The notes beneath the pieces were generated by a model that was not told where the DNA came from, did no database searches, and saw only the letters and a list, made by a program, of their open reading frames with translations. A stretch of DNA of 64,000 nucleotides from an uncultured Candidatus Izemoplasmatales bacterium (GTDB lineage Bacteria; Bacillota_I; Bacilli_A; Izemoplasmatales; Hujiaoplasmataceae): contig CAZSVO010000002.1 of the NCBI GenBank assembly GCA_964610325.1, positions 204,475-268,474 on the forward strand, given 5' to 3'. This document shows, one piece after another, positions 2,712-60,050 of this stretch (positions within the stretch are counted from its first letter, which is position 1; each line of letters opens with the position of its first letter). Both the position numbers and the translations under genes were made by a program.

Positions 2712-3734
2712 ATGGCAAAGATTGTTACTATGGGAGAAATCATGTTAAGGCTTTCTCCACCAAACAATTTGCGTTTTATACAAACTGATAGTTTTGATGT
2801 TGTTTATGGAGGTGGAGAGGCTAATGTAGCATCGAGTCTTGCCTGCTATGGACATGAAGTCTATTTTGTATCAAAACTTCCAGATAATGAAATAGGGCAA
2901 GCAGCAATTAATAAATTAAGACAGTTTGGTGTTCATACTGAATATGTCAAAAGAGGCGGTAATAGAATTGGAGTTTATTTCCTGGAAACAGGATCTGCTA
3001 TGCGAGCATCAAAAGTTATCTATGATCGATCAGCAAGTGCAATTTCTGAAGCTAAACCGGAAGAATTCATGCTGGATGAGATTTTTAAAGGCAAGGAATG
3101 GTTTCATTTTTCTGGAATTACTCCAGCTTTAAGCGATAAAGCAGCAGAACTTACCAAGCAAGCTTTAATTGCGGCTAAAAGTCATGGGCTGACTGTTTCA
3201 GTAGATCTAAATTATCGAAAAAAGCTTTGGTCAGAAGAAAAAGCACAAGAGATTATGAAACCATTAATGAAATATGTTGATATTTGTATAGGAAATGAAG
3301 AAGATGCATCACTGGTTTTAGGCTATAAGTTATCAAAGACTAATATCGATGAGGGTAAACTTACCAGAACCGATTATGAATCAATCCTTAGGAAGATGCA
3401 TGATGACTTTAGTTTTAAGTATGTTATTTCAACATTGAGAGAATCATTTTCTGCTAGTAAAAATGGGTGGAGTGCATTGATGTATGACGGTAAGAATTAT
3501 TATGAATCAATTAAGTTCATGATTGAACCTATTATTGACAGAGTTGGTGGTGGAGATTCTTTTAGTGCAGGAATTATTCATGGATTACTTAATTTCAATT
3601 CTCAAAAAGCGATTGATTTTGCTGCTTCAGCAAGCGCACTAAAACATACAATATTTGGTGATCAAAACTATGTTTCTGAAGCAGAAGTTCTAAAACTAGT
3701 TGAAGGAAATAGTTCAGGGAGAGTGGAAAGATGA
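2712..3734 (+). CDS. kdgK: 2-dehydro-3-deoxygluconokinase (PfkB family)
   Basis: N-terminal GG motif (YGGGEANVA) and C-terminal GGGDSF anion-hole motif of PfkB kinases. Context eda-kdgK-kduI-kduD. RBS GGGGGG 6 nt upstream. Confidence 0.8.
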   Translation: MAKIVTMGEIMLRLSPPNNLRFIQTDSFDVVYGGGEANVASSLACYGHEVYFVSKLPDNEIGQAAINKLRQFGVHTEYVKRGGNRIGVYFLETGSAMRASKVIYDRSASAISEAKPEEFMLDEIFKGKEWFHFSGITPALSDKAAELTKQALIAAKSHGLTVSVDLNYRKKLWSEEKAQEIMKPLMKYVDICIGNEEDASLVLGYKLSKTNIDEGKLTRTDYESILRKMHDDFSFKYVISTLRESFSASKNGWSALMYDGKNYYESIKFMIEPIIDRVGGGDSFSAGIIHGLLNFNSQKAIDFAASASALKHTIFGDQNYVSEAEVLKLVEGNSSGRVER

Positions 3735-4441
3735 AAGAAAATAGAACTGTAAATAGAGTATTAGCAATACTAGAATTAATAGCAAAATATGATGAAGGTT
3801 TAACTTTAGGACAGATATATCGAGAATTAGATATTCCGAAAGCAACCGCTTATGATTTTCTTCAAACACTTTATAAGGCAGATGCGATATATTATAAGGA
3901 TCCTAGACTGAAAAATTATGTGATTGGGTCCAAAATGTTTGCTATTGGATCGGTTTATGCTAAAAATTCTAATCTTATTGAAGCTGCACAGTATGACCTA
4001 AAGCAATATGCAGATAAACATGGTAGAACGGTCTTTATTACCAAAAGAATTAACGATAAAATTGTCTATGTATACAAATATCAACCTAGTAATTCTAAAG
4101 TGATTACTCCACAAGAAATTGGTAGTGTTACTAGAGATTTTAAGGAAGACATAATTGGAAAGTGTTTCTCTGTTTTTGACAAAAAAGTTAGAGATACTTC
4201 GATTGCAAATTTTGAAAATATTAGGAAAAATAGATTTATCTTGAGCAATAATCAAGAAGCAACTCATATCTGTACAGTTGCTGTACCTGTGTGGAATTTT
4301 GAAAATCGCGTCTGCGGAGTGTTAGTAGCATCAGCTTTGCAAGAAGAGAATACAAACAGAGAGTTGATTACGAATGAGTTAGTTGATATCTCTGAACAAA
4401 TCTCAAGAAAACTAGGTTATTTAGGCGATTTTAATGATTAA
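3731..4441 (+). CDS. IclR-family transcriptional regulator (KdgR-like)
   Basis: N-terminal wHTH typical of IclR (VNRVLAILELIA...LTLGQIYRELDIPKATAYDFLQTL) plus a C-terminal effector domain. Start overlaps the kdgK stop. Confidence 0.8.
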   Translation: MKENRTVNRVLAILELIAKYDEGLTLGQIYRELDIPKATAYDFLQTLYKADAIYYKDPRLKNYVIGSKMFAIGSVYAKNSNLIEAAQYDLKQYADKHGRTVFITKRINDKIVYVYKYQPSNSKVITPQEIGSVTRDFKEDIIGKCFSVFDKKVRDTSIANFENIRKNRFILSNNQEATHICTVAVPVWNFENRVCGVLVASALQEENTNRELITNELVDISEQISRKLGYLGDFND

Positions 4442-6868: not shown

Positions 6869-6903
6869 TAACACTGAGGATTTAACTTCAGTGTTTTATT
6901 TTT
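6869..6903. terminator. Bidirectional rho-independent terminator between convergent kduD and the LarA-like gene
   Basis: Hairpin aacactgagg-atttaa-cttcagtgtt followed by TTATTTTT. Overlaps the stop of the minus-strand ORF. Confidence 0.6.
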
Positions 6904-8173
6904 CGAGAAATTTTAACTTATCAATCCATAAACCTAGAGCTGGATTAGGAATATAGAATACCTCTTTACCATTTTCAAGAATATTCCATCCGTATTTTAA
7001 ACGATTTGGATTATAGATTTTTACCATTTCATCATAGTCCGCAGAACAGAAATTGACAGATTCTATTTCTTCTTTAGTGATATTTTTGACGGCATAAGTA
7101 ATTTTAAAACGATTATCAGAGGAACTGTGAATCAAATGAGCAGCAACTCCCATATTCTCTTGAAGTTCAATGTTATTGTTAAATAGTTTCAATACATTGA
7201 GTCTTCCGCAATAGCCGTACTTTCTAATTAACTCATCTATTCTTTTATCTTCACCAAACTTTTTGACTCCAGGTGCAAGAACAATTAGTTCTCCGCCATC
7301 TTTAATAGCCATTCTAGTTCGGTAAATTGATTTATTCCCTAACCATGTGCTTTTAAACTCTTCTGGTTCTAAATAGACGACGCAGGTTTCAATTGGCTTT
7401 TCTAAAAAATCAATGTTCTTTTTTTGAGAAGCTTTAATTGCCAATTCCAAGGCGTTTCGATTAGGACCGATATATAGACCATGAGTTTTAATCTCTGCTT
7501 TTAAAGCTGTAGTTACAGTAAGAACAAACACTAAAGGGATTTTACTTAAGAAATTTGTCATTGCATAATCTAAAACTTTTCTTACAGGTGTATGATCTTT
7601 ACCCATCATTCTTTCCATTCCATAAACTGCACCAATCATATGACTTTGATTGATTGTTTGCTTGCCTCCACAACCAACAAGGATGTTTTTGGAGTGGTTT
7701 GACATACCGATAACCTCATGTGGGACAACTTGACCAATTGATAAAATCAAATCATAAGTTGAGTCGAGTAGAATTTTATTCACTTCACATGTTACTGGTC
7801 TATTCCATAAACCCTCAGTAATTTCGTTGACATACTCTTTAGGTACTACACCAACCTCCTCTATATCATTTCGCCAATCGTGATATAAAAAAACATCAAA
7901 AGGAATATCGCCATACATTTTCAAGCATTCTTCTTCTGTCATAGCATCATGAGTTCCTAAAGCTGGAAGAATATCAACTTCAATATTATTATTCTTACAG
8001 TAGTTATAGTAATAGTTAGTTATTAATCCCGCATTGGAATGATATCTTGTAAAATCAGGTGGAATAAGTAGTACTTTACTTAATTTGCGACTTATTATAG
8101 ATTGTTCCAAAGCTGAAAAAATTTCTTGATTGCTTAATCCTGCATCTGCAAGATTCTCAATAAATATATCCAT
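6896..8173 (-). CDS. LarA-like (DUF2088 / lactate-racemase superfamily) protein; candidate hydroxy-acid 2-epimerase (D-mannonate/D-gluconate, GntE-like)
   Basis: 425 aa, the typical LarA-homologue length. N-terminal block VLLIPPDFTRY resembles the hIIxxDxTR motif of the LarA N-terminal domain. Last gene of the uxaE-like/kinase/gnd/SDR operon. The family call is by memory of the motif, not by alignment. Confidence 0.4.
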   Translation of the reverse strand: MDIFIENLADAGLSNQEIFSALEQSIISRKLSKVLLIPPDFTRYHSNAGLITNYYYNYCKNNNIEVDILPALGTHDAMTEEECLKMYGDIPFDVFLYHDWRNDIEEVGVVPKEYVNEITEGLWNRPVTCEVNKILLDSTYDLILSIGQVVPHEVIGMSNHSKNILVGCGGKQTINQSHMIGAVYGMERMMGKDHTPVRKVLDYAMTNFLSKIPLVFVLTVTTALKAEIKTHGLYIGPNRNALELAIKASQKKNIDFLEKPIETCVVYLEPEEFKSTWLGNKSIYRTRMAIKDGGELIVLAPGVKKFGEDKRIDELIRKYGYCGRLNVLKLFNNNIELQENMGVAAHLIHSSSDNRFKITYAVKNITKEEIESVNFCSADYDEMVKIYNPNRLKYGWNILENGKEVFYIPNPALGLWIDKLKFLEK

Positions 8174-8176
8174 TAT

Positions 8177-9028
8177 CTAGACACCTGAGTAAGCAGAGAA
8201 TCCACCATCAACAGGAACAACTACACCGGTAACAAAGCTAGAAGCCTCATTATCTATGAGCCAAAGCATTGTTCCAATCAACTCCTCTGGTTCTCCATAA
8301 CGTCCCATCGGAGTGTTGTTAAGTATTTTTTCGGATCTTTTTGTTGGAGTTCCATCAGGATTCCATAAGAGACTTCTGTTTTGAGTGGTTGAAAAAAAGC
8401 CAGGAGCAATAGCGTTAACGCGAATTCCACTTTTTGCAAAATGCACAGCCAACCATTGAGTAAAATTTGATATGGCTGCTTTAGCTGCGCTATAAGCAGG
8501 AATTTTTGTTAATGGAGTAAAAGCGTTCATTGATGAAATATTAACTATTGAACATTCAGATTTTTTAATCATATCGATACCAAATTCTTGAGTTGGCAGT
8601 AAAGTGCCTTTGAAGTTAAGACCAAAAACAAAGTCAACCCCATCAGAATCCAAATCAAAAAAACTAATTTTTTCTGGATTTGTTAAGGTTTCATAGTTGA
8701 AAAACTCATCATCAGTTGTAGCTTTTGGACTGTTACCACCAGCGCAGTTAATCAATATATCTGTAGACCCAAGTTCTTCTTTAACAATTCTATGAGCTTC
8801 TTTTATGGAATCTTTGCTTAAGACATTTGCTTTAACTGGTATAGCAAAAAAACCTTCAGATTGAATTTCATCTGAAATCTTTTTTGCTTGGTCGTAAGAT
8901 AGGTCTAGTATTGCTACTTTAGCGTTGCATCGCGCAATTGCCTTAGCAAAATAACTACCAAGAACTCCACCACCTCCAGTAATTACAACAACTTTTTCGG
9001 TTAAATCTGGGTATTTCAATTTTTTCAT
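8177..9028 (-). CDS. SDR-family oxidoreductase, candidate fructuronate/mannonate oxidoreductase (UxuB-like)
   Basis: Rossmann motif VVVITGGGGVLG. SDR catalytic region SAAKAAISNFTQ. Start revised to MKKLKYPDL (ATG 9026-9028) because the longer track ORF would overlap gnd by 107 nt. Confidence 0.6.
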   Translation of the reverse strand: MKKLKYPDLTEKVVVITGGGGVLGSYFAKAIARCNAKVAILDLSYDQAKKISDEIQSEGFFAIPVKANVLSKDSIKEAHRIVKEELGSTDILINCAGGNSPKATTDDEFFNYETLTNPEKISFFDLDSDGVDFVFGLNFKGTLLPTQEFGIDMIKKSECSIVNISSMNAFTPLTKIPAYSAAKAAISNFTQWLAVHFAKSGIRVNAIAPGFFSTTQNRSLLWNPDGTPTKRSEKILNNTPMGRYGEPEELIGTMLWLIDNEASSFVTGVVVPVDGGFSAYSGV

Positions 9029-9044
9029 AATAAATAATCCCTTC

Positions 9045-10496
9045 TTATACATTATAAGTTGAAGAAGAAGTTTTTCCTCCTCTTCCCGTCCAATTTGTGT
9101 GGTAAAACTCACCTTCTTGACAATCAATTCTCTCATAAGTGTGTGCACCAAAATAATCCCTTTGAGCTTGGATTAAGTTAGCTGGTGAAGTATCACTTGT
9201 ATATCCGTGGAAATATGATAGTGCAGAGGAAAGCGCAGGAATTGCAATTCCACTTAATGATGCATGCGCACATACTCTTTGCCAACCAGGCAAAATCTCT
9301 TGGATTGTCTTTTTAAAGTAATCATCAAGAAGAAGATTCTCTAATGCTTTATTTCTAGTATAAGCATCTTTTATCTCGTTCAAAAATTTTGAACGGATTA
9401 TACATCCGCCTCGCCAAATCTCGGCTATTTTTCCATAGTCTAGATTCCAGTTATAGTTATTAGCTGCTGCTCTTAATAAGGAATAACCTTGAGCATAAGA
9501 AATTATTTTTGAAGCATATAATGCATCATGTAAATCATTAAGAAACTCAACTTTGTTTCCATCAAATTTTTTAATATCTCGATTATAAAATTTCGATGCT
9601 TTAACTCTCTCTGCTTTAATAGCAGATAAGAATCTTGCATAAACTGCTTCAGTTATTAATGTTAGAGGAATATTCTCTTCTAAAGAAGCAATCCCTGTCC
9701 ATTTCCCTGTGCCTTTCTGGCCAGCTTTATCTAAAATCTTTTCAAGCAAAGGATTGCCGTCTTCATCTAGAAAACCGATAATATCAGCGGTTATCTCAAT
9801 AAGGTAACTCTCTAATTTGCCTTTATTCCAGTTAGAAAAAGTTGTCTTTATTTCTTCAAAATTCATACCAAGAGATTTTTTCATCAAAAAGTAAGTCTCT
9901 GCAATAATCTGCATATCACCATATTCTATTCCATTATGAATCATCTTCACATAATGGCCTGCACCATCGCTTCCAATCCAATCACAACAAGGTTCATTAT
10001 CAACTTTTGCAGAAATTGATTGCAGGATATCTTTTACCTTTGGCCAAGCTGAGATAGAACCTCCAGGCATTACTGAAGGACCATTCAAAGCACCTTCCTC
10101 ACCGCCAGAAACTCCTGTTCCGATAAAAAGAAAACCCTTATTCTTGAGATATTTTGTTCTATTTATTGTATCAATGTAATTGGAATTTCCTCCATCAATA
10201 ATTATATCACCTTGATCTAGATAAGGTAGTAATGCTTCTATGACATCATCTACAGGAGAACCTGCTTTTATCATCATCATAATCTTTCTAGGTTTAGAAA
10301 GACTATTAACTAAGGTTTTGATGTCATAAACTCCTTGTAAATTACTACTTCCATATTTGTCAATTACACGATTTACATCTAACTCAAAACGATCATAAAC
10401 AATTACTTTAAAACCTTTTGAGGATATATTCCTTGCGAGATTCTCACCCATTACAGCAAGACCTATTAAGCCAATGTCACCAAGATTTGTAGTCAT
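9045..10496 (-). CDS. gnd: 6-phosphogluconate dehydrogenase (decarboxylating)
   Basis: 483 aa. N-terminal NADP-binding motif IGLIGLAVMGENLARN. Typical 6PGDH C-terminal domain (GIEYGDMQIIAE; RGGCIIRS). Confidence 0.9.
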   Translation of the reverse strand: MTTNLGDIGLIGLAVMGENLARNISSKGFKVIVYDRFELDVNRVIDKYGSSNLQGVYDIKTLVNSLSKPRKIMMMIKAGSPVDDVIEALLPYLDQGDIIIDGGNSNYIDTINRTKYLKNKGFLFIGTGVSGGEEGALNGPSVMPGGSISAWPKVKDILQSISAKVDNEPCCDWIGSDGAGHYVKMIHNGIEYGDMQIIAETYFLMKKSLGMNFEEIKTTFSNWNKGKLESYLIEITADIIGFLDEDGNPLLEKILDKAGQKGTGKWTGIASLEENIPLTLITEAVYARFLSAIKAERVKASKFYNRDIKKFDGNKVEFLNDLHDALYASKIISYAQGYSLLRAAANNYNWNLDYGKIAEIWRGGCIIRSKFLNEIKDAYTRNKALENLLLDDYFKKTIQEILPGWQRVCAHASLSGIAIPALSSALSYFHGYTSDTSPANLIQAQRDYFGAHTYERIDCQEGEFYHTNWTGRGGKTSSSTYNV

Positions 10497-10502
10497 AGTT
10501 TT

Positions 10503-11576
10503 TCACCTCTTTACTCTAGCGTTTCCTTGATATATACTCCATATTTGTTCTTCATCAGCTACTAAACCATAGTCATCTAACAAAGTAACTACATAAGCAC
10601 CACATGCCCAAGCGAACTGCAAACACGATGTGCTATCGAATCCTTTTAGCAGACTATAAAGAAAACCACCGACAAATCCATCGCCTCCACCTATTCTATC
10701 AAGTACTTGAATTGGTCTTGGTAAGACAACTTGCCATTCTTCATCAATTAATGCAACTGCTCCCCAAAGATGTTCATTAGCATTATTGACTTCTCTTAAG
10801 GTAGTAGCAAAACACTTGGTATTTGGATATATAGCTTTTGCATTATTGATTAATGTCTTAAAACTATCGATTTCATCAGAAATGTTTTTACCCCCAGCTT
10901 CTGGACCGGGAATGTTTAATGCTAATTGGAAGTCTTCTTCATTGCCAATTAGTATATCTGATACTTCAGCAATACTCTTGAAAACATTCTCAAGTTCATC
11001 TCTTCGGTTTTTCCAAAATGAAGCTCGATAATTTAAATCAAAAGAAACTTTAGTCCCTGAAGTTTTAGCTTTTTTAGCTAACTCTACACAAAATTTTGCA
11101 GAATTTTCAGATAATGATGCTATCAAACCAGAAATATGAATCAATTTTACCCCATCTTCAAGAAATAACTTGGTTAAGTTAAAGTCTTTGGTATTCAGTG
11201 TTTTTCCGACTTCTCCTGAACGATCATTATGTACTCTTGGTCCTCTTAAACCATAACCACTATCGGCGATATTAAACTGATGTCGATAGCCCCATGGCCC
11301 GCCTTGTTCAACTTCTATTCCTTCAAACTCAATATTTCTGAACATAAGATCGTTTTTTATGAACTTCGCTATAGGACTATCTTTGACAAAAGTGGTTAAT
11401 ACTTTTGTTCTCATACCTAAACTAGCAGCTATACTCAAAACGTTTGATTCTGCACTGGTTGCTTGCAAGCGATAATCTCTTGCTAAATGAACTGGTTGTC
11501 TATCGTGAGGAGTAAGTCTAACCCCCATACTAGTTGGTACTACTAAAGAATATAATGCATTTTCTTTAAATTTCAT
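10503..11576 (-). CDS. PfkB-family sugar/sugar-acid kinase (candidate gluconate or KDG kinase)
   Basis: 357 aa. PfkB C-terminal motif GGGDGFVGGFL. A second PfkB kinase besides kdgK, adjacent to gnd. Confidence 0.65.
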   Translation of the reverse strand: MKFKENALYSLVVPTSMGVRLTPHDRQPVHLARDYRLQATSAESNVLSIAASLGMRTKVLTTFVKDSPIAKFIKNDLMFRNIEFEGIEVEQGGPWGYRHQFNIADSGYGLRGPRVHNDRSGEVGKTLNTKDFNLTKLFLEDGVKLIHISGLIASLSENSAKFCVELAKKAKTSGTKVSFDLNYRASFWKNRRDELENVFKSIAEVSDILIGNEEDFQLALNIPGPEAGGKNISDEIDSFKTLINNAKAIYPNTKCFATTLREVNNANEHLWGAVALIDEEWQVVLPRPIQVLDRIGGGDGFVGGFLYSLLKGFDSTSCLQFAWACGAYVVTLLDDYGLVADEEQIWSIYQGNARVKR

Positions 11577-11588
11577 AAAACCCTCCTT

Positions 11589-13070
11589 TTAATTGAAGCC
11601 TTTATATAGCAAAGCAAGATGATTTCCAATGTGTTTTGATAACTCATCAGCATACAATTTTTCTTCTTTTTTCCATAGTTTGTACAACTCAGTTTTAAAA
11701 AGATATTTACCACTCTCATCTTTTTCATTTAGAATATATCCATAAGTAATGTGTATAAGTTGCCTTGCGTCATTATTCTTAAACAAATCAACTAAGCATT
11801 CATCAGCTATCAAATCCACATCAGGAATCTTATTTATGTCAGTAGTGACATGATAAAACTTTGTAGCATCATTAAATTTAGATAGCGCATATTTATGAAT
11901 TCTTCGATACATATTAGGATTGCATATAGAAACAACTTTCATAGCTTCTAGCCAGTTTGTTCCAGCGGTTTTTACATGAAAATGACCTTTTGTATATTTT
12001 CCAATGAGTTCAAAAATTGAAAATTTATCAGAACCAGAGTGAATGCTCAATTTGTACCCAAAATGCCTTGCGATTGCTGCATGTAATTTTAGTTCATTTT
12101 CAAATTGAAACAAATCGCCGATGTAATCAATGCCTTTCTGAAATTCTCCGCAAAACCTTGGTGCAATAGTGTCTATTTTGACGCCGGCAAGAAGCAACTC
12201 ATTTGCTACAAAATAGTGTTCTAGAGCTGTTGTTGGTGTGGAAGTTTCATCAATAGATATTTCAAAACCAACTTTAGTTTTGCTTTTGCTTATATATTTA
12301 TCATAAATCTTCTTTGAATAATCAATCGCATTTTGGTAAACTAACATGGCTCTTCTCAAATCTAACTCAGTAAATTTTAACTCAATACCTTCGATGATAA
12401 TCTCCTTATTAAGGTATTTACCAATCAATGAACTGTTGATGTTAGTAAGTCTAATTATCTGTTCTACAGACATGTTTAATACATCATCTCTAATATGCTC
12501 ACTACAATCTAAGGTAATCATAGTGAAGCCTAATGATAAAGCATATTCAATATCACTAGCCGTCTTTAGGTGATCACCATCAGCCCCGAAGCCTTTTTTA
12601 TAACCTTCGCGAAAAACAGAGAAAGAAGCTTTATCCAAAACATCTTCATAACTCCTGTTTGTCATGTTTAGTTCCCTAATCGATTGCTGAGCTAGTACTG
12701 GGTAACAATCATAGTTATTAATAATTTGCAAATGTCCTTTACCGGCTATACCAAGACGATCTCCTAAACCAAAACTGCGTGGTTTATCAAGAACAGATAT
12801 GGGTTTAGTAAAGGGGAAAAGCAATCTTAATGCATTTGCGTTAGCATGAGTTAGGGGAGCTATTTTGTATGATAAACCATCATCAACAAAAGATTCTCCT
12901 TCAAATTCATTTTGGATTCTACCAGAAACTAGCAGTTTATCCTGGTTTTCTTGAACAAATAAAAATACCCAAGAATCTTGAAAAGGATTTATAGAAGCTT
13001 TATAGATGTTCAAAGTTTCATAACCTTTTGTCTCGGGGAGTTGTTTGATAAAGTCTTTAAAGGATATCAT
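11589..13070 (-). CDS. Tagaturonate/fructuronate epimerase-like protein (UxaE-like TIM barrel)
   Basis: 493 aa. No Rossmann motif, so not UxaB. No UxaC or UxaA signatures. Size and context fit the UxaE family. Strong RBS GGAGGTAAGGA. Call made by context and recollection, not alignment. Confidence 0.4.
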   Translation of the reverse strand: MISFKDFIKQLPETKGYETLNIYKASINPFQDSWVFLFVQENQDKLLVSGRIQNEFEGESFVDDGLSYKIAPLTHANANALRLLFPFTKPISVLDKPRSFGLGDRLGIAGKGHLQIINNYDCYPVLAQQSIRELNMTNRSYEDVLDKASFSVFREGYKKGFGADGDHLKTASDIEYALSLGFTMITLDCSEHIRDDVLNMSVEQIIRLTNINSSLIGKYLNKEIIIEGIELKFTELDLRRAMLVYQNAIDYSKKIYDKYISKSKTKVGFEISIDETSTPTTALEHYFVANELLLAGVKIDTIAPRFCGEFQKGIDYIGDLFQFENELKLHAAIARHFGYKLSIHSGSDKFSIFELIGKYTKGHFHVKTAGTNWLEAMKVVSICNPNMYRRIHKYALSKFNDATKFYHVTTDINKIPDVDLIADECLVDLFKNNDARQLIHITYGYILNEKDESGKYLFKTELYKLWKKEEKLYADELSKHIGNHLALLYKGFN

Positions 13071-13120
13071 TCCTTACCTCCATATTACCGTATATAAATA
13101 CGGACACCGTTTATTAGAAT

Positions 13121-13150
13121 ATTATATCATTATTTTGTTCTTGTTGTCAA
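13121..13150 (-). promoter_or_regulatory. Sigma-A-type promoter for the uxaE-like/kinase/gnd/SDR/larA-like operon
   Basis: On the minus strand: TTGACA, 18-nt spacer, TGaTATAAT (extended -10). About 45 nt upstream of the start codon. Confidence 0.55.
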
Positions 13151-13173
13151 TCCATTGAATTAAATTCAAAAAT

Positions 13174-13193
13174 TAATCATATTAATATGATTA
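13174..13193. promoter_or_regulatory. Perfect 20-bp palindrome TAATCATATTAATATGATTA, candidate operator in the divergent promoter region
   Basis: Exact reverse-complement symmetry. Lies between the -35 elements of the divergent uxaE-like and GH105 promoters. Confidence 0.6.
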
Positions 13194-13226
13194 GTTTTTT
13201 ACGCTTTTATTCTGTCGGATTATTGA

Positions 13227-13255
13227 TTGACATAAAAAAATTATTTTGTTAATAT
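13227..13255 (+). promoter_or_regulatory. Sigma-A-type promoter for the GH105 gene
   Basis: TTGACA (13227-32), 17-nt spacer, TGtTAATAT extended -10 (13250-55). Confidence 0.45.
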
Positions 13256-13300: not shown

Positions 13301-14395
13301 TTGTTGAAGATTTTTTTAGATAGATTTATTAGTCAAATCATTGATGAGTTTAATCCTTATCATCCCAATAAGAGGCTGACATATGAAGATGGATTGTATT
13401 TGATTTTATTATTGAAATATTACCAATTAAGAAAAGATGAAAAAGCATTGAGCTATCTTCTTAATTATCTCGATGCATACATTGATGAGGTCGGGGATAT
13501 TAAAGATTATCAATTAGCAGAATACAATATTGATAATATATTAGCAGGTAATGTGCTATTTTTTGCAAATGATTTGACCAAAAACAAGAAGTATGAACAT
13601 GCAATAAATAATTTAGTAAATCAGATTAAACATCAACCAAGAACCAGAACAGGCAATTTTTGGCATAAACTAAGATACCCATATCAGATATGGTTGGATG
13701 GTATATATATGGGTCAAGTTTTTTACTTGAGATATGCAATTTATAATAATAAAACAGAGTTATTGTCTGATATTATGAATCAAGTGATGAATGCAGATAA
13801 GCTATTGTGGGATCAAGATAGAATGCTTCACCTCCATGCTTATGATGAGACAAAGATTATGCAGTGGGCAGATAAAGAGTCTGGACGTTCACCTAATGTT
13901 TGGAGTAGATCAGTTGGATGGTTTGCTATGGCATTGGTCGATATTTATGAGCTCCTAGGAAATAATTATGAATCTGAGAGAAAGAATATAAAAGATATCT
14001 TGACAAGAATGATTGAAGGATTGAGACCTCATTTAGACAAAGAAATTAAAATGATTTATCAAATTATTGATAAACCTAGTTTGAACGGTAATTATCCTGA
14101 GACTAGCGGAAGTGCGATGATTGCTTATGCATTGATTAAAGGCTATAGATTAAAACTTCTAGATATAGATTATTTAATCTTGGGTAAGGAGATTATCAAA
14201 GAGATTGATAGATTATACCTAAAAGAAAAACAAGGTCGATTTTTTTTAGGAGGTATATGTAAAGTTGCTGGGCTAGACAATGATTTAAGAGATGGCAGTG
14301 AGGGTTATTATCTATCTGAGCCAGTTGTGGATAATGAGATCAAGGGAGTTGCTCCTTACCTTTATGCTTTGATTGAGTTAGCTCTATTACAGTAA
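13301..14395 (+). CDS. Unsaturated rhamnogalacturonyl/glucuronyl hydrolase (GH105/GH88 family, (alpha/alpha)6 barrel)
   Basis: 364 aa. TTG start with RBS AAGGAG. Size and sequence character of YteR/YesR-like hydrolases. Pectin context. Confidence 0.6.
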   Translation: MLKIFLDRFISQIIDEFNPYHPNKRLTYEDGLYLILLLKYYQLRKDEKALSYLLNYLDAYIDEVGDIKDYQLAEYNIDNILAGNVLFFANDLTKNKKYEHAINNLVNQIKHQPRTRTGNFWHKLRYPYQIWLDGIYMGQVFYLRYAIYNNKTELLSDIMNQVMNADKLLWDQDRMLHLHAYDETKIMQWADKESGRSPNVWSRSVGWFAMALVDIYELLGNNYESERKNIKDILTRMIEGLRPHLDKEIKMIYQIIDKPSLNGNYPETSGSAMIAYALIKGYRLKLLDIDYLILGKEIIKEIDRLYLKEKQGRFFLGGICKVAGLDNDLRDGSEGYYLSEPVVDNEIKGVAPYLYALIELALLQ

Positions 14396-14421: not shown

Positions 14422-14458
14422 AACGCTACTAGATAATTAGAAAGAGTAGCGTTTTTTA
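14422..14458 (+). terminator. Rho-independent terminator after GH105
   Basis: aacgctact-(15 nt)-agtagcgtt followed by TTTTTT. Confidence 0.65.
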
Positions 14459-14497: not shown

Positions 14498-14526
14498 TTG
14501 ACATTTCTTTTGAGATATTATATAAT
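14498..14526 (+). promoter_or_regulatory. Consensus sigma-A promoter for the ABC transporter operon
   Basis: TTGACA, exactly 17 nt, TATAAT. Confidence 0.65.
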
Positions 14527-14599
14527 TATATTATAAACGGTGTACGTATATATAGACGATATACCATTTGTTAAATTATTTTGTTTGCGGAGTCTAAAT

Positions 14600-20961: not shown

Positions 20962-23900
20962 ATGAGAAAGGGATTAGTATTATTTTTATTAATATTTTTT
21001 AGTTTGGCAGTCACTGCTTGTAATGGTAGTACAACTTTAGAAACAACCACTACAACAACTAGCCAAAGCACAAGTCAAACAATAACTTCAACTACAAATA
21101 CAACATCAGGAAAAACTGATCAAGAACTTGTTGATGAGGTTTATGATTCTTTAGGTTTAGGAGATATCAGCGAATTGACTAATAGTTCTCCAAGGTTGAT
21201 AATGCCCACTTCAAGAGAAGGAGTAGGTATTTCTTGGAGTATATCTAATACGGAGTTTATTAGTCAAATGGGGGTGATTAGCCAACCTGAAAATGAAGCG
21301 GGGGACCAAGTTGTCATAATAACTGCAACTTTAACAAAAGGTATTGTATCAAGACAGAAAGTATTTACCGCAACGGTAATTGCTTTACCACCTTTAGAAG
21401 AAACACCACCTTTAATCAATGAAACATTTAGCGCATATCTTGATGGTGATATCATCCAACAGATTAGTTCTGGTCTTTGGGGACCTGTTAGTGGTAAAAC
21501 TGGCAGTTCACAGTTTTATGTGGTTTCAGAGGTTGAAGGAGAAGCAATTCCAAAAGATTCTAAAGCTTTAAAGATTAATGCTTTTACAGAGTTACAGATT
21601 GAAGCAGCTTTAGTTCATAACTATGATTTTTTAGTTGTTGAGGTGGATGTTTATCAAGTAGCTAATGGTTCACCAATCTATTTGCAAACAAGTGCAAGTT
21701 CGCCAATAATAGGTTTTGGATTATCTGGTGGTGGGGCTAATGGGGCAAAGATTTTTTACCGAACCGATAATGGGACAATGATTGGTACTGATGTCGCTTT
21801 AGATACTTGGTATACAATCAGATTAGAGGTTAATTTTATTGAGAAAACAATTGAGTTATTTTATTATGATGAGTCAGGCAATTTAGTTCCTTGTACTGAT
21901 GGACCTGTTAGTTTTACAGGTAGTACGTCATTTAATAGTCTTTTCATACGTAGTGGTAGTTCAACAACTACTGAGTTAAATGTTAATTCTGCATATATAA
22001 CAAATATTATCGCAAACAGGCCTGAGGCTTTACCAAGACCGGTGGATGGTTATAAGATTGGTGATATTTTAGGAATTGATGAACTTGTATCAGTTGAAAA
22101 CGGGGAAACATTTATACCCCAAAGTCCAATGATTTATAATTTCTATGGAGCTAGAGAACTATTAGTAGAAGATACTGATTATATCTTAGAAGTTACTAAT
22201 CCAGTAGATACATTAGTTGATGGTGAGTATTCAGTTGTTTATACAATTACAAATATTCATGATATAACTGATATTGTTAGTGTAACGCAAACAGTTACTG
22301 TCTATTCTCCGCTTCAACCTAATGTGATAAATTCTGTTACATCAACTTTAGCACCAGCAATGGAAAATACTACAGATTTAACTGTTAGTTTTTTAAGAGC
22401 AGAAGGCGTTTTACATTATGTTATCAGTGAGACAGTTTTAACAGCTGAACAAATTGTTGCTTCAACTAATAAAACTTCAGTTACTATTACAGATACAACG
22501 ATAGTTTTAGATGATCTAGTGGTTTTAGAATCAGAAAAGGTTTATCTTGTAGTAGAACTAAATGGATTTAGTAACGTGATTGAACATGAGGTAACTCATC
22601 AAGAAATAGTATCGATAACTACTGCTCAAGAATTTTATGATGCCTTACAGATGTCTGATAGTCAACAGACAGGAAAATATTTCTTGTTAGAAAATAATAT
22701 TGATTTTTCTGGATTTGTTTGGGCAGTCACTGATAATGAGTTTGTAGCTGTGTTTGATGGACAAGGGTTTACTCTAAGTAATCTAACAATTGATAAAATT
22801 GGGATTAAAGGAGGAATCTTTGGTTTCTTAGAAAATGCAACAATAAAAAACTTAGTCTTAGACAATATAACTACTTCGAGTGATCAAAGTGCTTCAGGGT
22901 TATTAGCAAGTGAAATTAGAGGTACAACTCTGATTGAAAATATCGTGATTATGAACTCAACAAATGTTGTGAGCAATCAATACGGGGCAATTATTGCTGG
23001 TAGAATCAGAAGTACTGGTACTTCAGTTATAATCCGGAATATCTCTGTTTCTAATGTCTTAACTGAAACTAAAGATAATTATGGTGGAGGTTTAATTGCT
23101 GGTATGGATACAGGTACTTCAGTGGAGTTTAGTGATATCTATCTTTATGATTTCACAGTCAAAGAAGCAACCAGTGCAACAGCTACTGGACAAATGGTTG
23201 GAGGTATTATTGGCAGGATTCAAGGAAACACAGTCATTAACCGCGTTGTTGGACATAATTTGTTAGTGATTGGTTATAAGAATGTCGGTGGTATCATTGG
23301 TAAATCTGACGAAGCTGGTGTAGTAGTTAGCCTAGATGATATCTTTATCCAAGGTCAAATTGAGTTTGTTGGCAGTGACCATGCAAATATAATTGTTGGT
23401 AATATCGCTGATCAAATACCGGTTTTAACAAATGTCTTTGCTAGTGGCTTTGATACAGTAAGTATTTTAGGTTTGGGTGTTGTAGAAGGTAATTTAGTTG
23501 CTTTAAACGATACTACTTTAGAATCATGGTGGACTACGAACATTCCTAATATATTAGCTAGTGATTTATGGCGATTTGAAATTGATTCACCGATACTAGA
23601 TAATATCTTTACTAATTCATTACCTAAGTTTGCGGTTAGTTTAGTCTACAATATCGATATTGATGATGAAACAATTTATCTTAGACAAGATGAAATCTTT
23701 GCTTATATACCTAGTGAAGTGCCAGGGTATGAATTTATAGAATGGTATAGTGATGAACTAATGACTACGCCTTTAGGAGATAGTTTTGTAATATCTCAAG
23801 CAGTAACTATCTATGGTAAGTATGATACAGCGCCAGCAAGTACTGTATCATTTGATACAGGGCTTGAGGGGCCTCTAATTGATCCAATCTTAGTCAATTA

Positions 23901-26847
23901 TGATGAACTAGCTACTGAACCAACTGTAGCTGACACGATGATTGAAGGTGTTATGAAAACAGTTGTTGGTTGGACACTTAATGGAGATGCTTTTGATTTT
24001 TCAACTCCAATTACGTCTGACTTAACTTTAGTTGCAGTTTGGGAGACTGTTAAGTTAACTGTTAATTTTGAAGGATTGGATTCCTTAATCGTTGATTATG
24101 GAGATAATGTTTTAGAACCAATTACTATTCCCGAACATCCAGTTTTTGCTAGTATAGTATTTGATTATTGGTCATTAAATGGTCTGGAGTTTGATTTTTC
24201 AGCAATTATAACTGAAAACATTGATTTGAAAATAAGTTGGAATATCCCTGATGTAGTTCAAATAAGCACTATAGATCAGTTTCATTATGTTGCGACTTCG
24301 GGTACTGATTATAGTTTTATTTTGCTTAATAATCTAGATTTTGAAGGATATTCATGGATCGATACGGGTGCATCATTTAAAGGTACTTTCGATGGAGATG
24401 GATTTACAATCAGCAATTTGATAATCAACTCCACTAACGGTTATGGTGGTATCTTTGCAAGAGCTAATGGAGCAATAATTAATAATCTTATCCTTGATAA
24501 TATAGAAGTCTCTACTTCAGCTCGGGCAGGTATTCTAATCGGTAGAGTAGAGAATGCACCTGTTCACGTAGAAAACATCATAATAATCAACTCTAGTGTT
24601 AGTGGTCAAGACTCCAACGGAACAGGTGGATTAATAGGACAAGCAGCAAATACAACAGTAGTGAGGAATGCTTCTATAATTAATACTATAGTCTTCTCAA
24701 CTAATAAGAATGTTGGAGGATTGATTGGAAGAGTAGACAAAGCAACCGTTTCAGCAGAAGATATCTTTATTTATGGATTATTAGCTACCTCTACAGTTAC
24801 TACTTCTACATCAGATATTGCAGTTGGCGGTGTTATAGGATATGTCACTGATAATGCAGCTAGTATCTTCAATGGAACGAGAATTATTGTTTTAAATTCT
24901 ATCTTGGATGGAATATCAGCAGGTGCTTTTTCAGGCTACTTAAGATATCCAGGTACTGCAACATTGTCTGATTCATACTTTGATATTACTTTCCTTAATG
25001 GTTTAAGAACGGGGCTAGTTGGTTATAATCGAGATCAAGTAGATATTTTGGATCAAACAACTATTTTTGGTAATTTGATTGATATTGTATCGCATTCGCA
25101 AGTTCTTGATTTGACAAATACAGCTATTCCCGATTCACAGACTTGGTGGAATAACTATATCCCTAATATACTAAATAGTGATTTGTGGACTTACCACTTC
25201 TTTATGCCTATACTTAAAAATGCAATTTTAGAAATTCCAGAGATTCATACAGTAATAATTAATTATGATCAAGTAACTACTGATGAAACCATATTTTTAT
25301 GGAACAACAGTATATTTAATCACACCGCTCCTTTAGTTAATGGTTATATATTCGTTGGATTTTATAGCGATGTTGATAGATTAGTTTCATTACCGGAGAA
25401 CTATGAAGTCACTGATGACATTACTATTTATGGAAAATATGATGTAATGCCACCAAGTACTGTTTCATTTGATATGGGTAGTTCAGGGTTGCTTGTTTTA
25501 GATCAATCAGTTAACTATGAGCAATTGGTTGTTGAACCAGTTGTACCTGACACTGAATTTGGTGGACATATGATGACAGTTGTCGGTTGGACTTTGAATG
25601 GTATTGAGTTTGATTTTTTGACTCCAATAGTTCAAGATATTGAACTAGTTGCCATATGGGAGATTAAAACCTACCAAGTTAGTTTCGAAGGTATGGATTC
25701 TGTAACTATAGATCATGGAGGATTGGTTTCAAAACCAGAAGTAGATCCAACACATCCGATTTTTAGTAGTATTACTTTTAATTATTGGGTTTTAGAAGGA
25801 GTAGAGTTTGATTTCTCTACACCAATAACTTCTGATCTAAGTTTAAGTATTGAATGGTCAGTGCCATTAAGTATATCTGTAAGCACATTGAATGAGTTTC
25901 ATTTTGTTGCAACGGCAGGAACAGATTACAATTATGTTTTAGAAAATAATCTAGATTATACAGGATATAATTGGATAGACACAGGAGCGTCTTTCCGAGG
26001 TAGTTTTAATGGGAATGGTTTTACAATTAGCAACCTAACTATAAATTCAGTAAATGGATATGGAGGGATATTTGCAAGGGTTAACGGAGCTAGCATCAGC
26101 AATGTTGTTTTTGATAGTATTACGGTTATTTCAAGTGCTAGAATTGGTTTGTTGATTGGTAGAACAGAAAATACTCCGGTTACAGTAGATGACTTAGTTG
26201 TCAAGAATTCTTCTGTTAGTGGAGCTGATTCTAATGGCACTGGAGGTTTGATTGGTCAAGTAGCTGTTTTAACATCCATTAGCAATGTTGCTATTATAGA
26301 TACAGTTATTTCTACATCGAACAAAAATATTGGTGTGCTAATTGGAAGAGTTGACAAAGCAACAGCTAATGCTGAGGATATCTTTATCAGTCAAGTCAAT
26401 GCTTCTTCAACAAGTACAGCTAGTTCTGATGTAGGATTAGGTGGGGTGGTCGGTTATGTTACAGACAATATAGCTAGTATTTTTAATGGAACAAGGATTG
26501 TCGTTGTGAACACAAATTTGACTGGAAATGCGGCTGGAGCTTTCATCGGTTATCTAAGAGGGCCGGGATTAGCAACACTGACAGATTCATATTTAGAAGT
26601 TACTTTTGTTAATGGTTCAAGAACAGGTTTGATTGGCTATAATCGAGATCAAAATCCATCTTTAGATCAAAGTTCAGTTTTTGGTAATTTATCAAGTCCA
26701 ACTACTCATAGTCAAGTGCTTGATTTAGTAAATCAAGTTAATATCGCAGATGATACATGGTGGCAAGTAAATATCAACACTATATATATTAGCAATATTT
26801 GGACTGTCAATACGGATGGGACTGTTGCACTAAATATAATTTTATAA
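20962..26847 (+). CDS. Giant surface-anchored lipoprotein (1961 aa) with three GLUG-like beta-helix modules and Flg_new (Listeria-Bacteroides) repeats
   Basis: RBS AGGAGG. Lipobox VTAC-N. Thr/Ser-rich linker. Three paralogous modules begin with (F/Y)HxVAT.GTDY...LDFxGY.WIDTGASF(K/R)G.F(D/N)G.GFTISNL. Each is followed by 2-3 repeats of the type TVVGWTLNG..FDFSTPITSDL.LVAVWE. Confidence 0.8.
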   Translation: MRKGLVLFLLIFFSLAVTACNGSTTLETTTTTTSQSTSQTITSTTNTTSGKTDQELVDEVYDSLGLGDISELTNSSPRLIMPTSREGVGISWSISNTEFISQMGVISQPENEAGDQVVIITATLTKGIVSRQKVFTATVIALPPLEETPPLINETFSAYLDGDIIQQISSGLWGPVSGKTGSSQFYVVSEVEGEAIPKDSKALKINAFTELQIEAALVHNYDFLVVEVDVYQVANGSPIYLQTSASSPIIGFGLSGGGANGAKIFYRTDNGTMIGTDVALDTWYTIRLEVNFIEKTIELFYYDESGNLVPCTDGPVSFTGSTSFNSLFIRSGSSTTTELNVNSAYITNIIANRPEALPRPVDGYKIGDILGIDELVSVENGETFIPQSPMIYNFYGARELLVEDTDYILEVTNPVDTLVDGEYSVVYTITNIHDITDIVSVTQTVTVYSPLQPNVINSVTSTLAPAMENTTDLTVSFLRAEGVLHYVISETVLTAEQIVASTNKTSVTITDTTIVLDDLVVLESEKVYLVVELNGFSNVIEHEVTHQEIVSITTAQEFYDALQMSDSQQTGKYFLLENNIDFSGFVWAVTDNEFVAVFDGQGFTLSNLTIDKIGIKGGIFGFLENATIKNLVLDNITTSSDQSASGLLASEIRGTTLIENIVIMNSTNVVSNQYGAIIAGRIRSTGTSVIIRNISVSNVLTETKDNYGGGLIAGMDTGTSVEFSDIYLYDFTVKEATSATATGQMVGGIIGRIQGNTVINRVVGHNLLVIGYKNVGGIIGKSDEAGVVVSLDDIFIQGQIEFVGSDHANIIVGNIADQIPVLTNVFASGFDTVSILGLGVVEGNLVALNDTTLESWWTTNIPNILASDLWRFEIDSPILDNIFTNSLPKFAVSLVYNIDIDDETIYLRQDEIFAYIPSEVPGYEFIEWYSDELMTTPLGDSFVISQAVTIYGKYDTAPASTVSFDTGLEGPLIDPILVNYDELATEPTVADTMIEGVMKTVVGWTLNGDAFDFSTPITSDLTLVAVWETVKLTVNFEGLDSLIVDYGDNVLEPITIPEHPVFASIVFDYWSLNGLEFDFSAIITENIDLKISWNIPDVVQISTIDQFHYVATSGTDYSFILLNNLDFEGYSWIDTGASFKGTFDGDGFTISNLIINSTNGYGGIFARANGAIINNLILDNIEVSTSARAGILIGRVENAPVHVENIIIINSSVSGQDSNGTGGLIGQAANTTVVRNASIINTIVFSTNKNVGGLIGRVDKATVSAEDIFIYGLLATSTVTTSTSDIAVGGVIGYVTDNAASIFNGTRIIVLNSILDGISAGAFSGYLRYPGTATLSDSYFDITFLNGLRTGLVGYNRDQVDILDQTTIFGNLIDIVSHSQVLDLTNTAIPDSQTWWNNYIPNILNSDLWTYHFFMPILKNAILEIPEIHTVIINYDQVTTDETIFLWNNSIFNHTAPLVNGYIFVGFYSDVDRLVSLPENYEVTDDITIYGKYDVMPPSTVSFDMGSSGLLVLDQSVNYEQLVVEPVVPDTEFGGHMMTVVGWTLNGIEFDFLTPIVQDIELVAIWEIKTYQVSFEGMDSVTIDHGGLVSKPEVDPTHPIFSSITFNYWVLEGVEFDFSTPITSDLSLSIEWSVPLSISVSTLNEFHFVATAGTDYNYVLENNLDYTGYNWIDTGASFRGSFNGNGFTISNLTINSVNGYGGIFARVNGASISNVVFDSITVISSARIGLLIGRTENTPVTVDDLVVKNSSVSGADSNGTGGLIGQVAVLTSISNVAIIDTVISTSNKNIGVLIGRVDKATANAEDIFISQVNASSTSTASSDVGLGGVVGYVTDNIASIFNGTRIVVVNTNLTGNAAGAFIGYLRGPGLATLTDSYLEVTFVNGSRTGLIGYNRDQNPSLDQSSVFGNLSSPTTHSQVLDLVNQVNIADDTWWQVNINTIYISNIWTVNTDGTVALNIIL
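22620..26847 (+). repeat. Three diverged tandem coding repeats of about 1.6 kb (module starts at about 22620, 24260 and 25880; the last is truncated)
   Basis: Protein-level paralogy of about 60-70% between modules 2 and 3. Intragenic, not CRISPR-like. Confidence 0.7.
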
Positions 26848-26936: not shown

Positions 26937-27911
26937 TTAGAAGCTATAATCTTCATGAAGTGATCGTGAGTCCCATGAAATATATATATCCTTTTTAAAT
27001 ACATATACTGGTAAACTAGCAACGTTTTTGAATCCTAATGCGTAATAGAATGGTTGATCTCCACCGGTTATGCCATATATATTTGGATATTTTCTTCTAA
27101 CTCGATTTGACAATTCATGAATTAATGCAGTAGCTAAACCTTGCCTTCTACACCACCATACAACAGCCATGGGTTCTAATTCTGCATAAGGCATTTTCTC
27201 GTTAGCCCATCCAATTGCAAAGCCTACAGGTCTTTCTTCAGAATCGAGAATTACTACCTCAAGTTCTGAATCATAATGTTTCATGGTTCTTAAATTCTCA
27301 AATGCAGTTGAACCTAACTCTGTTGTTGGATAACCATAATTGAATGATTGTCTATGTGCATTTGATAGATAAAAAGGCTTAACATAATCTTTGGCAAAGT
27401 GAAACTCTGGTTTTAATGACACTTCATAGGGTAGGTTATCAAAATGAAGGATGTTGACGTTCTCTTTTGATTCGTTCAATGTGAAGCCATATTTGGTTAA
27501 CACATCTTTTAGCTCAATATGCCAATCAGGGACAGTCAAGTAAAGTGTGTTAGTAGTTCGGTTATCTTCCACTTTTGCAAGGTGGGTAATCGAAAATCTG
27601 ACCATTCTTTCCAAAAGTGCTTTATCTTTTGAACGTTCTTTAGAATCGAAAAAGAAAAATGCATCACCATCATATGAACCTTCAGACAAAACACTAGCTA
27701 CTAATTTTTCGCTTTCAAAATACAGACCCATAGATTCCGTCCAAACCTTATGGCAATTCTTAAAGTCTGGATGTAGACCTTTGCTAAACTCATGGCGAGA
27801 TAACCCCCAAATGGGAAAATCATATTTGTAACTATTAAGAATTAATTCTTCAATATCATAAAAGTATTTTTCTTCATAGTACTTAAATTTTATCATATAA
27901 TTACTCCTCAT
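26937..27911 (-). CDS. GNAT-family N-acetyltransferase with an N-terminal domain of unknown function
   Basis: C-terminal acetyl-CoA-binding motif RRQGLATALIHEL...YALGF. Confidence 0.55.
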   Translation of the reverse strand: MRSNYMIKFKYYEEKYFYDIEELILNSYKYDFPIWGLSRHEFSKGLHPDFKNCHKVWTESMGLYFESEKLVASVLSEGSYDGDAFFFFDSKERSKDKALLERMVRFSITHLAKVEDNRTTNTLYLTVPDWHIELKDVLTKYGFTLNESKENVNILHFDNLPYEVSLKPEFHFAKDYVKPFYLSNAHRQSFNYGYPTTELGSTAFENLRTMKHYDSELEVVILDSEERPVGFAIGWANEKMPYAELEPMAVVWWCRRQGLATALIHELSNRVRRKYPNIYGITGGDQPFYYALGFKNVASLPVYVFKKDIYISWDSRSLHEDYSF

Positions 27912-27943: not shown

Positions 27944-27967
27944 TAATCATATTTTCAAATATGATTT
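27944..27967. promoter_or_regulatory. Second copy of the TAATCATATT / AATATGATT inverted half-sites, here with a 4-nt spacer
   Basis: TAATCATATTttcaAATATGATTT. Same 10-mers as the 13174-13193 palindrome. Lies between the divergent GNAT and GH4 genes. Confidence 0.5.
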
Positions 27968-28186
27968 TATCACATTTTTTAATAAATTTGCTTATGAAAA
28001 TGATTTTCTTCAAAAATCTATGATCTTATATCTATTCAAGATTTTACTAAGTGGTGTATCAATTCTTTATAGTTTTAGTGAGATTTAAGTTGATTAATCA
28101 AGATGATGAAACAATCAGCTTTTAAATAATTAAATAGTAATCAGTGTATCATTGATTAATGATATAATAAATTAAGGAGGTAATAT

Positions 28187-32776: not shown

Positions 32777-32856
32777 AATATCTATTGACAAACGTTATCA
32801 AAAATGATAACATTATCAATATAGATAATATAAAACGAGATTAAGGGAGGGATAAA

Positions 32857-33405
32857 TTGAAAAAGGATATAATAAGCGCGTTAATGCATCCCATAAGAAT
32901 TAGAATAATCCAAGAGTTGGGAATAAAAGGAGATGCAACTACTAAAGAACTACAAGCCGCTTGTGGAGATTATGGTCAAGCTACCATATATAGGCATCTT
33001 AAAGAAATGTTGGAATACGAATTGATTAAAGTAGTCAATGAGAACAATATCAATGGAATAATTGAGAAAGTATACGGATTAAATGAAGATTTAGGTTCAT
33101 TAATCTTGGGCAATCCAGAAGAACTAAAAAAAGATGATTACTTAATATTATTCACACAGTATATTATGTCTATTATGAGTGATTTTTCAGCTTATTTCGA
33201 ACAAGATAATGCACTACAAGAAGTTACTGAGAATATAGGATTTACAAGTAGTTCAATATTTCTAAGTGATGAAGAACTAAAGGAAATGATGTTAGAAATG
33301 GCTGAATCGATGATGAAAAGAATTATCAACGAACCAAAAGAAGGAAGAAAACTTAGAAAAATTTCAAGCATTACAACTACAGTTTTAAATAAAGATAAAG
33401 AGTAA
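32857..33405 (+). CDS. ArsR-like winged-HTH transcriptional regulator
   Basis: N-terminal HPIRIRIIQEL...TTKELQ...ATIYRHLKEM wHTH signature. RBS AGGGAGGG. Confidence 0.6.
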   Translation: MKKDIISALMHPIRIRIIQELGIKGDATTKELQAACGDYGQATIYRHLKEMLEYELIKVVNENNINGIIEKVYGLNEDLGSLILGNPEELKKDDYLILFTQYIMSIMSDFSAYFEQDNALQEVTENIGFTSSSIFLSDEELKEMMLEMAESMMKRIINEPKEGRKLRKISSITTTVLNKDKE

Positions 33406-48754: not shown

Positions 48755-48954
48755 GAATCGATACAGAGGAGCAAGATACTGGTATTAAGTCTTAGATTTT
48801 TGTAGTGGACGGACAAGGACTTAAGAAGGAGTGTTTTGCCGAAAGGGTTGATTAGTCTGTAAATCAAAACCTTGGTATTTAAACATACAGGATAAATACT
48901 GCCATTTAAATGGAGAGCTGTTATATTTTTGCAAAAAAATATAATGGCTTTTTT
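48755..48954 (+). ncRNA. Putative lysine riboswitch (L-box) with an intrinsic terminator expression platform, predicted ON-type
   Basis: L-box-like conserved blocks AGAGGAGC (48765-72), GCCGAAAGGG (48838-47), GGAGAGCUG (48912-20). Terminator 48917-48954 (gctgttatattttt-gcaa-aaaaatataatggc followed by TTTTTT). Its 5' arm overlaps the putative P1 3' strand. Precedent exists for L-boxes upstream of kamA lysine-catabolic operons. Confidence 0.45.
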
Positions 48955-50968: not shown

Positions 50969-50971
50969 ATT

Positions 50972-52259: not shown

Positions 52260-52260
52260 A

Positions 52261-56724: not shown

Positions 56725-56725
56725 A

Positions 56726-59529: not shown

Positions 59530-59572
59530 AATTTGATGTTTGAAAAAACTTTGAATTTTCTTAGATTTTTTC

Positions 59573-60049: not shown

Positions 60050-60050
60050 T

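Follow-up and report, generated by a model that had tools for sequence, protein, structure and literature searches.

A conserved 20-bp palindrome between divergent galacturonate and pectin utilisation promoters, a candidate operator distinct from the probable IclR/KdgR box of the same locus

The pectin utilisation region

The window, by which we mean the whole stretch of 64,000 nucleotides that was analysed, has a G+C content of about 32% and codes for proteins whose closest named relatives are found in Izemoplasmatales, Acholeplasmataceae, Peloplasma and 'Tenericutes' genomes obtained from metagenomes. Its first part is devoted to the degradation of pectin and of the galacturonate released from it (Table 1). 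The long plus-strand operon that begins upstream of the window carries the gene of an IclR-family protein, the pectin locus having no other regulator, as the initial annotation had stated. It is followed by the minus-strand genes of a Thermotoga-type galacturonate pathway, headed by uxaE, and, in the divergent direction, by the GH105 gene and the ABC transporter operon. The GH105 gene has a terminator-like hairpin behind it and is probably monocistronic. Further along, a GNAT-domain protein and a GH4 glycosidase are divergently encoded; the GH4 enzyme is a probable alpha-galacturonidase, its relatives being annotated as galacturan 1,4-alpha-galacturonidase.

Some other features of the region deserve to be mentioned. 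The last gene of the uxaE operon codes for a LarA homologue (626 bits to the NCBIfam 'nickel-dependent putative hexonate epimerase'), which stands where the Thermotoga-type pathway has its gluconate/mannonate epimerase step. The pectin cluster ends with a 1961-aa surface protein containing atrophied Ig and Listeria-Bacteroides repeat domains. In one related locus (L239) the GNAT gene is also convergent to a similar giant protein, so that this adjacency is conserved. Far downstream lie a lysine riboswitch (70 bits) and an operon for lysine fermentation, whose products include lysine 2,3-aminomutase, D-lysine 5,6-aminomutase, a beta-keto acid cleavage enzyme and a CoA transferase; between them stands an IS110-family transposase gene, and its insertion may have broken the link between riboswitch and operon.

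Table 1 Genes, promoters and sequence elements of the window (positions are those of the window)
Feature	Position	Strand	Remarks
Long operon ending GH28-kdgA-kdgK-iclR-TIM barrel-kduI-kduD	to 6863	+	begins upstream of the window
IclR-family regulator gene	3731-4441	+	within the kdgA-kdgK-iclR-TIM-kduI-kduD module
Galacturonate pathway, Thermotoga-type	6896-13070	-	uxaE, PfkB kinase, gnd, short-chain dehydrogenase, nickel-dependent hexonate epimerase
LarA homologue gene	6896-8173	-	uxaE operon
uxaE, tagaturonate epimerase	11589-13070	-	first gene of the operon down to 6896; PF16257, E = 3.7e-188
Box B, uxaE leader	13088-13113	-	TAAACGGTGTCCGTATTTATATACGG; start at about +2; kept in L076-L079; candidate IclR/KdgR operator
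uxaE operon promoter	13121-13150	-	-35 TTGACA 13150-13145, 18-nt spacer, TGaTATAAT to 13121; 12/12 consensus
ARG-box-like palindrome	13156-13170		TTGAATTAAATTCAA; by the uxaE -35
Palindrome A, site 1	13174-13193	.	TAATCATATTAATATGATTA; 1 match, 0 mismatches
GH105 promoter	13227-13255	+	-35 TTGACA 13227-13232, 17-nt spacer, TGtTAATAT to 13255; 10/12 consensus
GH105/GH88-type unsaturated uronyl hydrolase gene	13301-14395	+	
Terminator-like hairpin	14422-14454		after GH105
ABC-transporter (SBP) operon promoter with box B	14498-14559	+	TTGACA 14498-14503, TATAAT 14521-14526; 12/12 consensus
Box B, ABC-transporter operon	14534-14559	+	TAAACGGTGTACGTATATATAGACGA; same arrangement in L077 and L078
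ABC transporter (SBP and permeases), then pectate lyase and surface protein	from ~14601	+	
1961-aa surface protein gene	20962-26847	+	end of the pectin cluster
GNAT-domain protein gene	26937-27896	-	319 aa
Palindrome A, site 2	27944-27967	.	TAATCATATT ttca AATATGATTt; arms of site 1 plus 4 central bases
Predicted extended -10 of GNAT	27964-27972	-	TGaTAAAAT, read from the sequence; overlapped by site 2
GH4 glycosidase gene	28187-29557	+	
Palindrome by the HTH_20 gene	32785-32811		18 bp, GTTATCA-AAAA-TGATAAC; just past the -35
ArsR-like HTH_20 protein gene	32857-33405		
Lysine riboswitch	48756-48928	+	
IS110-family transposase gene	49210-50286	-	between riboswitch and lysine-fermentation operon
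Lysine-fermentation operon	50546-62907	+	

A palindrome between the uxaE and GH105 promoters

The intergenic region between uxaE and GH105 contains an exact palindrome of 20 bp (palindrome A, site 1). Both its exactness and its location between the two divergent -35 boxes had been noticed before and were borne out here, the distances being 23 nt to the -35 box of uxaE and 33 nt to that of GH105. Placing the transcription starts 7 nt past each -10, the centre of the palindrome falls at about -69.5 from the predicted start of uxaE and at about -78.5 from that of GH105. Site 1 is a perfect 10+10 dyad with half-site centres 11 bp apart, about one helical turn, and its core ATCAT-N6-ATGAT has a 5-6-5 geometry. 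It is nearly pure A+T, with symmetric A and T tracts on both flanks, and the symmetry extends, weakly, to positions 13168-13199. No Rfam RNA family covers this site or the second one described below, and the papers searched contain no match to the 16-mer core of either. Independent assemblies of different samples, 5-6 in number, agree exactly at both sites, which are therefore not assembly artefacts; since the contigs of the same species are 100% identical at both sites, population variation is uninformative. The ARG-box-like palindrome next to the -35 box of uxaE (Table 1) is not conserved in relatives and is probably fortuitous.

By itself such a palindrome is not significant, because 17% of simulated 64-kb windows (first-order Markov, same composition) contain a perfect zero-spacer palindrome whose arms measure 10 nt or more. 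We call it functional mainly on account of the phylogenetic footprint that it leaves between diverged spacers in a sister lineage. The four contigs of this lineage (L076-L079) share the gene order found here, and their UxaE is 70-71% and their GH105 59-62% identical. In the GH105/uxaE intergenic regions of these contigs the palindrome reads TAATCATATAAATATGATTA, identical at 19/20 positions, the sole change being at its centre (TA in the window, AA in these contigs). Both promoters also retain their -35 and -10 boxes. The spacers between boxes and palindrome are 41-55% identical, versus 54% for aligned shuffled sequence, and the A/T tracts that adjoin site 1 are conserved neither in sequence nor in orientation. 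This comparison of orthologous intergenic regions, which the initial annotation had proposed, came out with a palindrome preserved amid flanks at the random level. Palindrome and GH105 -35 box are almost equally far apart in both lineages (33 nt here, 33-34 nt in the sister contigs), whereas the distance to the -35 box of uxaE changes from 23 nt here to 27 nt there. Palindrome A is thus very likely to be under selection as a functional cis-regulatory site. A related palindrome is absent from 69 more distant UxaE loci of species-representative genomes (44-61% identity or less), so that the sister lineage alone was informative.

Searching for more copies of the motif gave little. Allowing up to 3 mismatches, no further intergenic site appeared in the window or in L202. 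The loose pattern TAATCATATN{2,8}ATATGATTW gave at least 120 matches in viral contigs and was judged uninformative. An everted TGATTAATCA element located upstream of GH4 was discarded for lack of enrichment (13 copies against 9.7 expected). One 18/20 match, TAATCATATAAATATGATAC, is present in L215 (13268-13287) and L217 (5265-5284), just downstream of kduD and overlapping the -10 (TGaTACAAT) of a nusB-like gene, in a lineage with an IclR protein 69% identical. By a rough estimate, about 0.1-0.2 such matches are expected over the searched sequence and we judged it a probable product of chance.

A second copy of the arms beside GNAT and GH4

Only two palindrome A sites are known in the window, and their spacings differ. 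The second one lies between the GNAT and GH4 genes and has four bases (ttca) between the arms. The recurrence of the arms with this spacer had been described correctly, except that they are not identical, since the right arm, AATATGATT, matches at 9/10 positions, its final base being T and not A. Similarly, the distance of about 220 nt to GH4 held (220 nt from the end of the site to the ATG). The 36 nt given up to the GNAT start did not: the start is at 27896 in the public assemblies (319-aa product) and site 2 begins 48 nt upstream of it. The site is identical in 5 assemblies. When 9+9 arms were simulated with up to 1 mismatch and gaps of 0-10, a second copy was expected 0.023 times per window and was present in 2% of the simulations. 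With exact 8+8 arms, a second copy was found in 0/100 shuffled sequences.

Site 2 overlaps the predicted extended -10 of the GNAT gene, and in a promoter scan a weaker predicted promoter was also located over it. Its predicted position on the -10 and transcription start of GNAT would be of the repressor type. The half-site centres are 15 bp apart versus 11 bp at site 1, which represents a rotation of about 137 degrees, in agreement with the phase shift of about 140 degrees previously calculated for spacings of 0 and 4 nt. A rigid dimer should not accommodate such a spacing.

It is quite possible, for this reason among others, that only site 1 is a real operator and that site 2 is non-functional, either a match arising by chance or an operator lost through the 4-bp insertion, and therefore there would be no spacing flexibility to explain. 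The rotation of the half-sites speaks for this explanation. Furthermore, the orthologues of GH4 (L203, L204) and of GNAT (L238-L240) are found elsewhere in other gene contexts and without a palindrome A site, the loose pattern matches viral contigs at least 120 times, and the 18/20 match near the nusB-like gene shows that near-matches do arise. Against it stand the low expectation for a 19/20 match of the arms in one window and the situation of site 2, which falls within intergenic DNA, itself scarce here, coincides with a predicted core promoter and neighbours the pectin-related GH4 gene. Site 2 may be a true variant, a half-functional site or a decayed or chance match, non-function being less likely than not, and this single site is the source of the spacing puzzle.

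Box B and the IclR protein

Two promoters of the region have a second conserved element, which we call box B. It stands directly after the -10, at about +2 from the predicted start, and consists of a KdgR-like TAAACRnYGT followed by CGTAT...ACG. The window holds two matches versus 0.05 expected, each directly after a promoter with 12/12 consensus positions, that of the uxaE operon and that of the ABC transporter. In the uxaE leaders of other Izemoplasmatales (L007, L008, L011) related forms occupy the same position (TAGACGGCGTTTA; TAGACGCCGTCT...GCGGACGGC).

We examined 33 metagenomic loci with orthologues of the IclR protein (50-90% identical), and all 33 of them have the kdgA-kdgK-iclR-TIM-kduI-kduD module. 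The recognition region of the protein (GLTLGxIYRxLDxPKATxYDFLQTLYKADA) is essentially invariant across orthologues of 52-86% identity, and therefore they should share one DNA specificity. In most of the other IclR loci, boxes were found upstream of kdgA, iclR or GH105 (TAAACACCGTTTA, TAAACACTGTTTA, TAAACGATGTTTA, TAAACAGTGTACG, TAAACGCCGTCCGATATATCGGAC), some of them of the TAAACAnYGTTTA type. Altogether, box-B-type sites were located in L076-L079, L206, L210, L214, L215, L220, L224, L007, L008 and L011. Palindrome A, on the other hand, was present among the 33 loci only in the NPID and NPIE contigs, which correspond to the L076-L079 lineage. No promoter of the long plus-strand iclR operon was found in the 10 kb upstream of the window, and neither motif is there. 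In L202 the first gene of the iclR operon is divergent from a pectinesterase gene, and the 45 nt between them (2171-2215) contain neither motif.

Published consensus sequences of the IclR family are TGTYCR..YGRACA (group 1), TGRAACAN1-2TGTTYCA (group 2) and GKTYCRYW3-4RYGRAMC, and the gamma-proteobacterial KdgR box is GAAACGnCGTTTC (PMC8222616). Box B (TAAACGGTGTCCG... here, TAAACAnTGTTTA in relatives) and the boxes of the other IclR loci fit the IclR consensuses and the KdgR box. The G/C pattern of GKTYCRYW3-4RYGRAMC is missing from TAATCATATTAATATGATTA, as is that of TGRAACAN1-2TGTTYCA. Since the palindrome fits neither consensus and box B accompanies the orthologues, we assign box B and not the palindrome to the IclR protein, and box B is most likely the IclR/KdgR operator of this locus, judging from co-occurrence and from what is known of the family.

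That the palindrome might instead be the operator of this KdgR-like protein, with the flexibility of a tetramer explaining the two spacings, was also considered. The IclR protein has no competitor in the pectin locus, the very lineage where the palindrome is kept has it at 85-89% identity, and IclR proteins bind DNA as dimers or tetramers and in some cases act from upstream positions (PMC8222616). The mismatch of the palindrome with both GKTYCRYW3-4RYGRAMC and TGRAACAN1-2TGTTYCA, the 30+ other loci with an invariant recognition helix that carry box B instead of the palindrome, and the presence in this very locus of a box B conserved at repressor positions make it quite unlikely. The hint of the initial annotation that IclR binds the palindrome is therefore not sustained, as the palindrome does not travel with IclR. 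Its suggestion of a dedicated regulon operator survives in part: the footprint marks a probably functional site, while box B is the more likely candidate for the dedicated operator.

Search for another binding protein

Apart from IclR, the window and the 10 kb upstream of it have no regulator gene other than that of an ArsR-like HTH_20 protein, and no Crp/Fnr gene was seen. The HTH_20 protein was rejected as the binder of palindrome A because it has a distinct operator, GTTATCA-N4-TGATAAC, in its own promoter. The 18-bp palindrome situated there, just past the -35 box (Table 1), is probably the operator of the HTH_20 protein itself, controlling the ABC-2 exporter downstream. The GNAT protein, considered as an autoregulated regulator, was also rejected, as it has no helix-turn-helix domain even at E = 10. 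The uncharacterised proteins of the locus contain none with a DNA-binding domain.

We could also consider that the palindrome is a structural element (cruciform-prone or bent AT-rich DNA), a target of some nucleoid-associated protein or an element insulating one strong promoter from the other. It is nearly pure A+T with symmetric A and T tracts, it lies precisely in the space that two RNA polymerases would be expected to leave free, and the search in the window and 10 kb upstream found no cognate regulator gene. Yet the conservation is base-specific, with 19/20 positions kept including C and G and the adjacent A/T tracts not kept, structural elements rarely need 20 fixed bases, and the same arms are present at a second promoter, all of which makes this explanation very unlikely. 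Finally, the palindrome can hardly be a functionless chance feature as the frequency of such palindromes in simulated windows might suggest, because the footprint, at the same position while the surrounding non-coding DNA is saturated with change, largely refutes it and there is a second copy of the arms.

A model for the regulation of the region

We somewhat favour the view that palindrome A is the operator of a dimeric sequence-specific regulator, different from the IclR protein of the locus and encoded outside the approximately 74 kb examined. Each subunit would probably read a half-site of about 9 bp, TAATCATAT, and the palindrome can be modelled as TAATCATAT-N(2-6)-ATATGATTA; the two central base pairs would not be read, because they differ between lineages (TA versus AA). 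At site 1 the protein would occupy the DNA left free by the polymerases bound to the uxaE promoter on one side and the GH105 promoter on the other. Its effect would fall mainly on the GH105 promoter, which has no other operator (no box B) and whose spacing to the site is conserved, and would be exerted most likely by an upstream, class-I-like contact and not by occlusion; simple promoter occlusion is disfavoured because site 1 is upstream of both -35 boxes. The IclR protein would act as a classical repressor at box B, which follows the uxaE and ABC-transporter promoters at about +2. At site 2, binding over the predicted -10 and start would repress GNAT.

Some features speak against this model. 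Promoters so near the consensus are poor targets for an activator, a site at -70 to -80 is badly placed for a simple repressor, and the 4-bp change in spacing on the uxaE side makes an action dependent on the face of the helix less likely at that promoter. A single regulator that recognises identical 9-bp half-sites with centres 11 and 15 bp apart, activating GH105 and uxaE from upstream and repressing GNAT, seems unlikely to us. If one regulator did read both spacings, it would have loosely tethered DNA-binding domains and would add a second layer of control on pectin catabolism, independent of KdgR; such a two-spacing regulator would be of an uncharacterised type in a wall-less or Acholeplasma-like lineage of Bacilli. 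The spacing variant would be of interest only if binding to both forms were shown.

In itself palindrome A is probably an ordinary kind of object, a new operator of modest interest. If the preferred reading is true, with a regulator other than IclR at palindrome A, the pectin/galacturonate pathway of an uncultured Mollicutes-related bacterium from gut or digester would have a second regulatory input beside the KdgR-like repressor, and the palindrome, a clean motif of high information content, can serve in the search for its regulator. The analysis also brings a correction, as the TAAACRnYGT box that follows the uxaE and transporter promoters at about +2, and not the palindrome, is probably the IclR/KdgR operator.

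Comparison with known systems

In Firmicutes and Thermotogae, comparative genomics has reconstructed palindromic operators for local regulators of sugar catabolism. Binding sites at uxaE and pectin operons have been described for UxaR, a GntR-family regulator of Thermotoga maritima (PMC3750489), and pectin regulons have been described in Caldicellulosiruptor bescii (PMC8579813). Palindrome A resembles those sites in being a conserved dyad-symmetric sequence at genes of the uxaE pathway and of pectin oligosaccharide utilisation, and in having been found by comparative genomics, through footprint plus recurrence. It differs from them in that its locus is without a cognate regulator gene, its sequence is unrelated to the sites in the supplements of those papers, and it is located upstream of both -35 boxes and not over the promoter. 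With the IclR/KdgR operators it shares the connection to pectin and KDG catabolism and a locus that includes an iclR gene. The difference is that palindrome A is off-consensus and shows no co-occurrence with IclR orthologues, whereas box B is on-consensus.

The resemblance to the class I arrangement of CRP concerns geometry. Class I sites of CRP-type activators are 5-6-5 palindromes centred near -61.5, -71.5 or -82.5, and palindrome A has a 5-6-5 core and is a single site at about -70 and -78 from two divergent predicted starts. In contrast, its targets have a consensus -35 (TTGACA) and not the weak -35 box of class I promoters, its distance to the uxaE promoter shifts by 4 bp between lineages in place of a fixed helical phase, although that to GH105 is kept within 1 bp, and its sequence is unrelated to CRP/FNR boxes. 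Regulators such as AraC and CytR tolerate variable half-site spacing by means of flexible linkers, and AraC-type half-sites are about 17 bp long and usually direct repeats. Palindrome A has half-sites at two spacings, binding at either being putative, and differs in that no such protein is encoded near it. The window holds one further site, with a different spacing. What palindrome A has in common with the generic operator of a dimeric helix-turn-helix protein is dyad symmetry and, at site 1, a promoter-proximal intergenic footprint.
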